A stretch of 52,246 nt of DNA, from NCBI GenBank assembly GCA_963930145.1, contig CAWVLM010000065.1:1-52246 (forward strand). The letters are read 5' to 3'. The position numbers and the translations under genes are program-made. Shown here in pieces: positions 20,868 through 23,114 of the stretch; the stretch's first letter is position 1; each line of letters starts with the position of its first letter. Source of the stretch: Clostridia bacterium (GTDB lineage: Bacteria > Bacillota > Clostridia > Christensenellales > UBA1242). The notes beneath the pieces are model-generated. The model saw only the letters and a program-made list of their open reading frames with translations, had not been told where the DNA came from and did not search any database.

Positions 20868-21428
20868 TTATTTTTTCTTATCAATAAAAGCAATATTGTT
20901 ATTTTTGAATTTCACAAGATAGTTTTGATTGATATTGATTTCGCCTTTAAAAAAGATTTTGCCTTGTTTTTGTTTTTTACTTTCAACTTCTAAATATTCA
21001 ATCTCATAGAAATTATATCCCAATATGTTCAAAAGGGGATTGATATAGAAAAGAGCGTTGTTGATATAAACTATTCCAATTAAAACAAGAATTATAATAA
21101 AAAGCACAAAGTCACAAACATAAGTCACGTCAAGCTGCAGGGCGAAAAGCACAAATAGAGAAAAATAGCCAAGAAAATGCCTGTCTGTAATATTCTCTTT
21201 TTTTAATATGATAATTTCTTTCGTCATGTCCTTGCAATGATAGATATTTATGATAAGCCCGACTATGCCAAGCACAATAAGCGTTAAGAGCAAAATAATA
21301 TTTAACGTGTTAAGCACATTGAAAGAGTGGTTATCATTTATTATATCAATGATAAGCCGAATTAAGATTAAAAAATACATCGGAACAAAGGCACTTAAAT
21401 ATAAAAATATATCTTTTATAGCATTCAT
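20868..21428 (-). CDS. integral membrane protein, unknown function
   Basis: 186-aa ORF with about four hydrophobic segments and a basic C-terminal soluble part. I recognise no motif. Confidence 0.55.
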   Translation of the reverse strand: MNAIKDIFLYLSAFVPMYFLILIRLIIDIINDNHSFNVLNTLNIILLLTLIVLGIVGLIINIYHCKDMTKEIIILKKENITDRHFLGYFSLFVLFALQLDVTYVCDFVLFIIILVLIGIVYINNALFYINPLLNILGYNFYEIEYLEVESKKQKQGKIFFKGEININQNYLVKFKNNNIAFIDKKK

Positions 21429-22174: not shown

Positions 22175-22325
22175 TATAAAATCTCCTATATAATAGGAGT
22201 ATTTTTTTAGAAAAGTGCAATAGAATTTTTTTGGGGTAGTTTTTAAGAAAACACCAAAAAATAAGCAAAAAAAGACCATAAGTGCGGTAGCTGACAAAAA
22301 AATCTAAAATAAATACAAAAAAGTA

Positions 22326-22354
22326 TTGACAAAACGGGCAAAAGGACATATACT
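22326..22354 (+). promoter_or_regulatory. promoter of the initiator tRNA
   Basis: TTGACA 22326-22331, 17-bp spacer, TATACT 22349-22354, about 28 nt upstream of the tRNA 5' end. Confidence 0.55.
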
Positions 22355-22382
22355 AATATTGTGCTAAAAAAGGCAAAGATAT

Positions 22383-22459
22383 CGCGGGATGGAGCAGCTC
22401 GGAAGCTCGTCGGGCTCATAACCCGAAGGTCGTTGGTTCAAATCCAACTCCCGCAACCA
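22383..22459 (+). tRNA. initiator tRNA-fMet (anticodon CAT)
   Basis: 77 nt, very close to E. coli tRNA-fMet as I recall it. It has the C1xA72 mismatch, three G-C pairs in the anticodon stem (TCGGGCTCATAACCCGA) and an encoded CCA. Confidence 0.9.
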
Positions 22460-22466
22460 TAAAAAA

Positions 22467-22496
22467 AGTTGGGCATTTTTGCCCAACTTTTTTATT
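22467..22496 (+). terminator. intrinsic terminator after tRNA-fMet
   Basis: AGTTGGGCA pairs with TGCCCAACT, followed by TTTTTT. Confidence 0.7.
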
Positions 22497-22515
22497 GCGG
22501 GAATCAACTTTAGTT

Positions 22516-22596
22516 ATGACCTTCGGGCTATATCGAAACAAAGTGAAGATATAACCTTCGTATTCGGTTGTTAGTTAATAAAAACTCCCGCAACCA
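22516..22596 (+). repeat. tRNA-fMet-derived degenerate unit 1
   Basis: ATGACCTTCGGGCTATATCGAAACAAAGTGAAGATATAACCTTCGTATTCGG...ACTCCCGCAACCA. A complement to the 3' acceptor strand (TTGCGGGA) lies at 22495-22502. Terminator-like hairpin at 22606-22630. Confidence 0.7.
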
Positions 22597-22641
22597 AAAC
22601 GAAGGTTAGACATAAGTCTAATCTTTTTTATTTATCAACAT

Positions 22642-22719
22642 TTGACCTTTGGGCTATATCGAAACAAAGTGAAGATATAACCTTCGTATTCGGTTGTTAG
22701 TTCAGCACTCCCGCAACCA
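22642..22719 (+). repeat. tRNA-fMet-derived degenerate unit 2
   Basis: Same ~50-nt core as units 1 and 3 and the same ...ACTCCCGCAACCA end. A hairpin-rich tract follows, then a terminator at 22822-22846. Confidence 0.7.
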
Positions 22720-22856
22720 AGTCGCAAACTACGCTTAGGCAAGAATTGCACACGCAATTCGTTGCGGTGTCGCTGGTTTGCTCCTTTAACCCCACAAATC
22801 TTACGATTTGCGGGGAGCCTCACGGACTTCATAAGTCCGTTTTTTATTAAAAAATT

Positions 22857-22938
22857 ATGACCTTTGGGCTATATCGAAACAAAGTGAAGATATAACCTTC
22901 GTTTTCGGTCGTTGGTTCAATAAGAACTCCCGCAACCA
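22857..22938 (+). repeat. tRNA-fMet-derived degenerate unit 3
   Basis: Its 3' half (GGTCGTTGGTTCAATAAGAACTCCCGCAACCA) and the terminator after it (AGTTGGGCGATTTACCCAATTTTTTT) parallel the genuine tRNA 3' half and its terminator. Confidence 0.7.
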
Positions 22939-23114
22939 TGAAAAAGTTGGGCGATTTACCCAATTTTTTTATATTTCTTATATTTTCTTTTAGAATGTAA
23001 ATCTTTTTTGCCATATACAAAGTAAAACTCATTTAATCTATCTTTTGGTAAAATTAGCTAAGGGTTGACAAAAATTATAAAATATTATAAAATTAAGCAT
23101 AAAGTAGGTTATAT

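Follow-up and report, generated by a model that had tools for sequence, protein, structure and literature searches.

A tandem array of degenerate tRNA-fMet-derived units with a conserved hairpin in uncultured gut Clostridia

Units behind the initiator tRNA gene

We analysed a 52,246-nt stretch of DNA from an uncultured Clostridia bacterium of the chicken gut (contig CAWVLM010000065.1; hereafter the window), in which an array of three degenerate units derived from the initiator tRNA (tRNA-fMet) occupies positions 22460-22972, directly behind the genuine tRNA-fMet gene. The only tRNA in the window is tRNA-Met(CAT) at 22383-22459 (ARAGORN; Rfam RF00005, 61.3 bits), and it is marked as an initiator by a C1xA72 mismatch together with three anticodon-stem G-C pairs, both read from the sequence. 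Each unit carries a hairpin, termed H, in the place of the anticodon. The finding falls among the tRNA-gene fragments and pseudo-tRNAs found at integration hot spots, here with a hairpin, H, that is strongly conserved. Related loci are designated below by L numbers, and the features of the window locus are as follows.

22326..22354, + strand: sigma-70-type promoter of tRNA-fMet, TTGACA-17-TATACT, with 11/12 consensus matches; kept in relatives
22383..22459, + strand: genuine initiator tRNA-Met(CAT), CCA encoded (ARAGORN; RF00005); 88-99% identical in L024, L031 and L022
22461..22494, + strand: T1, tRNA terminator hairpin GTTGGGC/GCCCAAC plus T6, preceded by an A-tract and bidirectional in shape; read from the sequence
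22495..22596, + strand: pseudo-tRNA 1, with 5' acceptor-like strand (22495-22502), weak D-like hairpin, H1, decayed T arm, and acceptor 3' strand plus CCA (22584-22596)
22597..22632, + strand: T2, terminator hairpin GGTTAGAC/GTCTAATC plus T-run, a diverged T1 homologue (terminator scan 22601-22626, 11 pairs)
22633..22719, + strand: pseudo-tRNA 2, 5'-truncated, with tail TATCAACATTTGACC, H2, decayed T arm, and acceptor 3' strand plus CCA
22720..22807, + strand: X3, strongly structured spacer; directly after the tRNA CCA in strain L007
22808..22938, + strand: pseudo-tRNA 3, with 5' acceptor-like strand (22808-22814), hairpin/terminator 22822-22840 in the place of the D arm, H3, T-arm remnant, and acceptor 3' strand plus CCA
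22939..22972, + strand: T4, terminator closing the array, a T1 homologue (terminator scan 22938-22972, 14 pairs)
22522..22556, 22648-22682 and 22863-22897, + strand: copies 1, 2 and 3 of H, with a 10-bp outer stem, a 3x3 GNA/GNA loop, a 2-bp inner helix and a triloop

The units share a 32-mer core, GGGCTATATCGAAACAAAGTGAAGATATAACC, present in exactly three copies in the window (at 22525, 22651 and 22866, all on the + strand, hence with spacings of 126 and 215 nt) and absent from 100 shuffles. Every unit ends in ACTCCCGCAACCA, identical to the last 13 nt of tRNA-fMet. None of them was called by ARAGORN or matched RF00005 even at E<=10 (model threshold 29 bits), the units of L022, L024, L027 and L031 likewise failed to score as tRNAs, and Rfam 15 returned no described RNA family at or near the gathering score. 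A 7-nt loop with an anticodon is lacking in all units, where the CAU place is taken by a 19-21-nt hairpin extension. The flanks of H, GGG-N-U on the 5' side and AUAACC on the 3' side, correspond to tRNA positions 29-33 and 35-40. In the L024 unit the likeness goes further and covers the 3' strand of the anticodon stem as well as the variable loop (AACC-T-CGATGTC, as compared to AACCCGAAGGTC in the tRNA), and unit 3 of the window still carries the tRNA-derived GGTCGTTGGTTCAA. The units are thus derived from tRNA-fMet and are not tRNAs. A preliminary description of this DNA had proposed three such units behind the genuine gene, with a shared core, a tRNA 3' end, an anticodon arm whose anticodon had been replaced, and no standing as tRNAs, and our analysis bears it out on each of these points.

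The units differ in how much of a tRNA outline they retain. In unit 1, TTGCGGGA at 22495-22502, which had been noticed as a possible upstream complement, pairs with the 3' end and closes an 8-bp acceptor-like stem (fold z = -2.4, or -4.2 with T2 included). Unit 2 has lost its 5' acceptor strand. Unit 3 had been placed at 22857-22938; its end is correct, but its true start lies at ~22808, where UUGCGGG (22808-22814) pairs with CCCGCAA to give a four-way cloverleaf-like fold (z = -3.2) in which the terminator-like hairpin 22822-22840 serves as the "D arm". Units 1 (from 22495) and 3 (from 22808) therefore both have a 5' strand that closes an acceptor-like stem, resulting in four-way cloverleaf-like folds.

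A G+C-containing hairpin directly before a U-run, the mark of an intrinsic terminator, was found by the terminator scan in T2, at 22822-22840 and in T4, and by eye in T1; the scan probably missed T1 since pairing between its A-tract and T-tract swallows the T-run. T1 is 78% identical to T4 and 59% identical to T2, and the paired differences keep the hairpin: between T1 and T2 there are two double compensatory differences (GTTGGGC/GCCCAAC vs GTTAGAC/GTCTAAT). Unit 3 had indeed been said to retain a copy of the tRNA terminator, which is T4. The related claim that each unit has its own terminator holds as far as the hairpins are concerned, but not in the extent assigned to the repeat, since the true period is longer and takes in the terminator that follows every CCA; T1, T2 and T4 are homologous to one another, though diverged. 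Period A (22460-22596) can be aligned with period B (22597-22719) over the whole length, through terminator, tail, core and tRNA-like 3' part. In this alignment 45/46 positions of the core are identical, as compared to 58/86 in the rest (Fisher p = 1.6e-5), in agreement with the earlier impression that the core is better conserved than the tRNA-like parts; the core is also kept across family-level relatives.

The region of spacer X3 (22720-22846, 127 nt) folds into three hairpins (-49 kcal/mol, z = -6.7), ends in a terminator and has no Rfam match; it was also considered as a copy of the 30.3/43.7-kb repeats and rejected, as blastn-short gave no match to them. In L007, X3 follows the tRNA CCA directly, and there it would be the 3' trailer RNA of tRNA-fMet.

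Contigs with the same unit-to-unit junctions were present in several independent chicken-gut metagenome runs, and the array is real in nature.

The locus and its hairpin in related genomes

Contigs of relatives were gathered via homologues of two flanking genes and by one degenerate H-pattern scan of 185,579 genomes. The strict H pattern occurred in one contig in each of six Clostridia/Firmicutes metagenome-assembled genomes (MAGs), and the remaining five strict matches, in unrelated phyla, were due to chance. The unit stands right behind tRNA-fMet wherever the tRNA gene is on the fetched DNA (the L025 fragment holds no tRNA), and synteny is kept: gyrB, tRNA-fMet, the GNAT gene in some cases, an ABC transporter and metG follow in this order, with methionyl-tRNA synthetase (MetRS) 61-88% identical. 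The unit family thus occupies a single syntenic position in every genome, and it does so in at least six uncultured Clostridia MAGs besides that of the window. The units do not form a dispersed repeat, a miniature inverted-repeat transposable element (MITE) or a repetitive extragenic palindromic (REP) family: there are three copies in 52 kb, all at one locus, and one locus per genome among the 185,579 genomes. The exact core had 0 matches in public genome contigs, and H was never found in 2.9 million viral contigs.

Across its variants, H has an outer stem of 10 bp whose sequence hardly varies; a 3x3 internal loop separates this stem from an inner helix of 2 bp, which is closed by a tri- or tetraloop. 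Each arm of the 3x3 loop reads GNA on one and the same strand (GAA/GAA, GAA/GGA or GGA/GAA), and the inner helix has undergone two double compensatory changes, GC to AU and CG to UA. In the H alignment 95% of cells pair, and its covariation score was reached by 1/500 shuffles. At a contig end in metagenome run X7, H occurs as a variant whose inner helix measures 7 bp and whose loop is GAAA, with the same flanks, GAA...GAAGATATAA.

The window H is 78-86% identical to the variants of five relatives, and identity between clades amounts to 78-91%. At the same loci, identity is 42-57%, the shuffle level, in the stretches before the promoter and behind the array, while the promoter and leader reach 49-67% and the tRNA 88-99%. 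The tRNA-derived share of H is ~11 of ~35 positions (GGG-N-U and AUAACC); the non-tRNA part, namely the UAUAUC/GAUAUA stem and the GNA loops, is also kept across clades whose intergenic DNA is at the shuffle level. H is therefore retained almost as strictly as the tRNA across related bacteria, which argues that the unit is not simple debris and that part of the module is functional.

The loop positions of H are same-strand purines and are not complementary, which points to a folded single strand rather than a double-stranded DNA operator palindrome, so that the latter is disfavoured. The + strand of H folds better in 8/10 variants, and G.U pairs together with these energies weakly point to RNA on the tRNA strand. 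H was also considered as a promoter and rejected, as no copy has an acceptable -35/-10 pair.

In L022, L024 and L031 the 3' part of the units folds into a minihelix of 9-12 bp (fold z -3.2 to -5.7), in which an acceptor-like 5' strand (G[U]CGGGAG) and the acceptor 3' strand are combined with two pairs of the T stem and a loop resembling a T loop. This minihelix is decayed in the window, where the 5' strand is lost, as well as in L007, L025 and L031 unit 3. Covariation in the T stem was rejected as a sign of selection on the minihelix: GC/GC in L022 vs GT/AC elsewhere merely mirrors each clade's own tRNA.

Unit copy number ranges from ~1 to 3 and varies between close strains. L007 belongs to the same species as the window (GNAT 98% identical) and lacks exactly 22460-22719; only unit 3 is kept, and the CCA is joined to 22720 (junction CCA|AGTCGCAAAC). 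The two strains differ at 1 position in 51 nt of core and 1 in 137 of X3, as compared to 8/31 in the tRNA-like 3' part of unit 3 (22908-22938) vs 9/364 around it (p = 9e-6), which looks like a conversion or recombination patch. In L018 and L024 (MetRS 88% identical) the tRNA is followed by terminator, unit and terminator; L024 has two 121-nt copies, and L018, a metagenome contig apparently from the same species, is the one-unit version. L031 (MetRS 75% identical) has three units with a period of ~115 nt, and L025 has one unit, located at the contig end. In L004 and L001 (neighbouring proteins 76-82% identical), the hairpin that comes behind tRNA and terminator is reduced to its 5' half, GACCTTTGGGTTATATC, and next to it lie a promoter and an unrelated structured RNA. 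In L004 this part (L004:60-290) comprises a strong promoter, TTGACA-17-TGTAAAGT, and a ~150-nt structured RNA with its own terminator, before the GNAT gene and without an Rfam match.

A sister clade is formed by L022, L027 and L030. In L022 and L027 (MetRS 61%, GyrB 83-85% identical), H abuts the tRNA CCA without a spacer, followed by T6-T7 and a minihelix (M) ending in GCAACCA. The resulting 75-76-nt H+M repeat gives the order tRNA, H, M, H, M, H in L022, with two units, and tRNA, H, M, H in L027, with one. H is followed by U5-U7 in all three members (dG about -16 kcal/mol), and H with this U-run is the only terminator-shaped element seen directly behind the tRNA, so that in build and position it resembles the terminator of the tRNA.

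Two deviating joins were found in metagenome contigs. One low-depth contig of run X5 joins 22524 to 22651, that is, the left flank of unit 1 to the right flank of unit 2, which suggests a two-unit strain; one contig of run X1 joins the tRNA end 22459 to 22558. Both joins are consistent with repeat recombination, and either could be a path choice of the assembly.

A mobile element at the locus was found in one relative, L030, which shares the downstream flank of L022 and L027; a comparison of the locus in related genomes had been proposed in the preliminary description, and it yielded the following insertion of 4.7 kb exactly between the tRNA CCA and H.

L030:316-5063: element inserted between tRNA-fMet and H; junctions ~L030:5064 and L030:349

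The element encodes two proteins, of 226 and 84 aa, that cannot be clearly placed in a family, one protein with a T5orf172 domain, one small membrane protein, and a large serine recombinase (LSR) of 608 aa with Resolvase, Recombinase and Zn_ribbon_recom domains. The recombinase frame crosses the right junction (...GGGCAACCA|TTTGGGTTATATC...), and its stop is the TAA inside H. Insertion took place at CCA|TTTGGG, and the two junctions have only GCAACCA in common, as expected of a serine integrase. In this clade, then, the junction between tRNA and H is an attB. An LSR element with short identity at both junctions was found in L030 only; the window has neither an element nor a CCA|H junction. By tblastn, no homologue of the L030 recombinase was found in the window or the other loci. 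The minihelix was also considered as a remnant of the L030 element end and rejected, since the local alignment was no better than the shared GCAACCA and 500/500 shuffles scored as high.

Origin and possible role of the array

Overall, these results are best explained by an old tandem array at 22460-22972 of degenerate tRNA-fMet paralogues and their terminators, resized by recombination, in which H is selected as a folded single strand; we consider this reading evenly poised between being right and being wrong. The units are neither simple decay nor a stack of independent attachment-site (att) scars. The shared derived hairpin and the end-to-end homology of the periods, terminators included, argue for duplication of one ancestral module rather than separate integrations. 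Taken with the clade-specific H variants in a syntenic locus and the copy-number differences between strains, they point to an ancient module made of a terminator and an H-bearing pseudo-tRNA.

The three units would all go back to a single pseudo-tRNA that stood directly behind the one syntenic tRNA-fMet gene and would predate the diversification of this family-level clade of uncultured gut Clostridia. In the ancestor ~20 nt would have replaced the anticodon, turning the anticodon arm into one long hairpin, H, and in units 1 and 2 the tRNA terminator would have been duplicated together with the copy. The 5' acceptor strand, D arm and T arm may then decay freely or be rebuilt as terminator hairpins, the 3' acceptor strand with its CCA probably stays tRNA-like through gene conversion, and copy number may go up and down by recombination between the repeated CCA ends or cores, with the module presumably amplified independently in each lineage. 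The first copy could have been a displaced fragment of an anticodon-centred integration (PMC4383910; PMC9897764) or, equally, a whole-gene tandem duplication. Purifying selection would maintain H in its folded, single-stranded form, most likely in the read-through RNA that starts at the very strong tRNA promoter. H is probably a structural element of the 3' flank that serves termination, insulation or 3' processing; as a best guess, made with low confidence, it could act in the read-through RNA in back-up termination or insulation, as a 3'-processing signal, or by binding a specific factor.

Several observations weigh against this reading. No promoter-like site precedes any unit in the window, and a terminator precedes each. 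The window H has no U-run, being followed by UUCGUAUUCGG, and the H of L024 and L031 has none either, so that a role in termination or processing is extrapolated from the sister clade; even there, a simple terminator scan did not call H, whose loop is too long and whose G-C pairs are too few for its rules. In the window the - strand of H folds slightly better. Only ~10 distinct H sequences from roughly four clades enter the comparison, and the invariant sequence of the outer stem is more than a plain hairpin needs and fits a sequence-specific partner. Conversion limited to the longest identical tract could explain the core identity within genomes without selection, and MAG assemblies of tandem repeats can misjudge copy number. 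Those "RNA" runs in which the locus occurs are metagenomic libraries stored as contigs, and their depth is flat; the chicken-gut metatranscriptome and small-RNA runs hold only conserved tRNA words and no sign of this organism.

A bolder version of the array reading, which we regard as unlikely, would make the unit a previously undescribed, lineage-specific non-coding RNA family born from the initiator tRNA, a paralogue with a structured GNA/GNA hairpin in place of the anticodon. Read-through from the tRNA-fMet promoter would produce these RNAs, and tRNA-processing enzymes would free them at the minihelix/CCA end. H would be recognised by a specific partner, such as a nuclease of RNA processing, a factor of translation initiation or a recombinase that works on folded strands, and the locus would double as a landing pad for serine-recombinase elements.

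Stacked att-site scars had been offered as an explanation at the outset. In a developed form, the units would be att-site remnants (displaced 3' tRNA-gene DNA (tDNA), attR-like) or tiny gene-less modules inserted after the CCA by a recombinase encoded elsewhere and accreting in tandem, with H as the folded recognition structure of that recombinase. The span of the units from anticodon stem to CCA is the extent expected from anticodon-centred att sites (PMC4383910; PMC9897764). Presence/absence polymorphisms have exact CCA boundaries (L007; L018 vs L024; L027 vs L022), a mobile element makes use of the L030 locus, and the spacers X1, X2 and X3 are unlike in length and content. The DNA missing in L007, however, consists of two further units and not of an element, so that repeat recombination explains this polymorphism equally well. 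The intervals measure only 45-140 nt, with no integrase between or beside the units and no relative of the L030 recombinase at these loci, and the likeness of the minihelix to the L030 element end is not significant. The same derived hairpin recurs in all units, and periods A and B are homologous throughout, diverged terminators included, which speaks for old in-situ duplication; each clade has its own H variant, consistent with vertical descent, and the confinement of H to one locus per genome, together with its absence from the viral contigs, also counts against this account. Moreover, serine integrases create no att duplications. What survives of the scar proposal is the element at the tRNA|H junction of L030 and the copy-number breakpoints at the CCA repeat, while independent stacking conflicts with the shared hairpin and the homologous periods, and we hold the att-remnant account to be improbable.

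Expressed small RNAs, named at the outset as tRNA-like decoys, are a quite unlikely alternative in our estimate: the units would yield ~75-130-nt H-M RNAs from read-through, cut by RNase P or 3' trimming at the minihelix/CCA ends and acting in trans, for example as mimics of the acceptor end or anticodon stem of tRNA-fMet that titrate a binding factor or nuclease. The near-tRNA conservation of H, the tRNA-like unit length of 71-76 nt, a terminator behind every CCA end, and the GNA/GNA purine loop and G.U pairs, which fit RNA structure on the tRNA strand, are all compatible with such molecules, as is the clean acceptor/T-like minihelix of 9-12 bp in L022 (CCA overhang), L024 (ACCA overhang) and L031 (blunt, with the CCA end sequestered). 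That same 3' overhang nevertheless varies by clade (CCA, ACCA or blunt), and the decay of the minihelix in the window, L007, L025 and L031 unit 3 suggests that the tRNA-like end is not under steady selection. The lack of promoters and the terminators upstream of each unit also disagree with this proposal, and the units have no anticodon, which is the main identity element for MetRS. At the other extreme, the units could be neutral debris, that is, decaying duplicates in which nothing but short-tract gene conversion, or template switching at a hairpin, keeps H uniform inside a genome, with the likeness across clades a by-product of tRNA origin. The unequal decay of the tRNA-like parts, the conversion-like patch in unit 3 and the ~11 of ~35 tRNA-derived positions of H agree with this, but it leaves the cross-clade conservation of the non-tRNA part of H, the paired substitutions of its inner helix and the persistence of the unit at family-level divergence (MetRS only 61% identical) without an explanation, and we consider it very unlikely.

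Among known systems, the array resembles the displaced tDNA fragments (attL/attR repeats) that integrative islands and prophages leave behind in tRNA genes, as described with Islander (PMC4383910, PMC9897764): partial copies of the same tRNA lie in direct orientation downstream of the intact gene (all three units on the + strand), begin in the anticodon arm and end at the 3' end, and the locus is strain-variable with breakpoints in the repeat. Tandem arrays of such fragments at one tDNA are known (PMC4383910, PMC9897764). Unlike them, the present locus has no island or integrase between the repeats, its 45-140-nt gaps holding only hairpins; a derived hairpin, shared by all fragments, stands in for the anticodon, homology between the periods reaches past the tRNA part, and the units are kept across a bacterial family rather than being strain-specific.

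Tandem tRNA duplications and pseudo-tRNAs are exemplified by E. coli metZWV and by tRNA-Other of Bacillus cereus. The array shares with them a local duplication of a tRNA gene and its flank, after which one copy is intact while the others are remodelled and do not decode, but its units have no anticodon loop, have lost or rebuilt the D arm and 5' strand, are separated by terminators and fail every tRNA model. With the Rho-independent tandem terminators of stable-RNA operons it has in common the canonical shape of T1, T2, 22822-22840 and T4, and in L022, L027 and L030 an H that abuts the CCA and has a U-run; the window H differs from them by its lack of a U-run, its AU-rich invariant stem and its purine 3x3 loop, none of which is needed for or typical of terminators. 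The L030 junction is like the attB of LSRs of the phiC31/Bxb1/TndX type, a likeness seen in one relative only, whereas the window has no element or recombinase gene and its H adjoins only a GACC remnant rather than the CCA end.

When a tRNA gene is followed by partial copies of a tRNA, these are usually written off as scars of integration, and here they are kept across a family of uncultured gut Clostridia. The H-bearing unit is a candidate new structured element tied to the expression or processing of the initiator tRNA, and the array offers a tractable case for exaptation of a tRNA pseudogene whose arms have become terminators. Should the array be no more than a termination zone prone to recombination, the finding would be ordinary. 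In L030, a large serine recombinase targets the 3' boundary of a tRNA gene; according to the 2014 Islander paper, serine integrases were not known to target tRNA genes (PMC4383910).

Neighbouring genes and minor observations

The array is neighboured by gyrA, gyrB, a GtrA-like gene, two genes without an assigned function, a GNAT gene, an ABC transporter and metG. No recombinase is encoded among these flanking genes or between the units, in line with the absence of an integrase noted at first sight. The downstream GNAT gene was considered as a functional partner of the units and dropped, as it does not stand beside the units in L018, L024 and L022. A 186-aa neighbour (window 20868-21428, - strand) has homologues (L001:5367-5924; L018:212-799) with the precomputed Pfam label KwaA (Kiwa defence, PF28043); a Pfam scan of the window protein itself gave nothing at E<=0.001.

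The 21-mer TATCGAAACAAAGTGAAGATA had matches in JGI metagenomes, which were rejected as an unrelated AT-rich repeat. In the lake metagenomes Ga0114966 and Ga0315284 (L008-L015, L017) it is part of a ~60-nt dispersed and tandem repeat (CAATGAATTTATCGAAACAAAGTGAAGATAAAGAAC...) on very AT-rich contigs.

A viral contig (L033:934-1046) carries an initiator-tRNA-like gene whose anticodon loop is split by ~39 nt with two small hairpins (GGGCTCAT[...]ATAACCC). It has no ARAGORN call and was found only because the insert happens to end in GATAT before AACC.

Finally, Rfam RF02896 ("Staphylococcus sRNA 774", sRNA standing for small RNA) gave matches just below its threshold of 48 bits on the promoter, leader and first 20 nt of tRNA-fMet, at 39.5 and 45.7 bits (window 22307-22402; L024:6874-6969), which suggests that this family is really the region upstream of tRNA-fMet genes.

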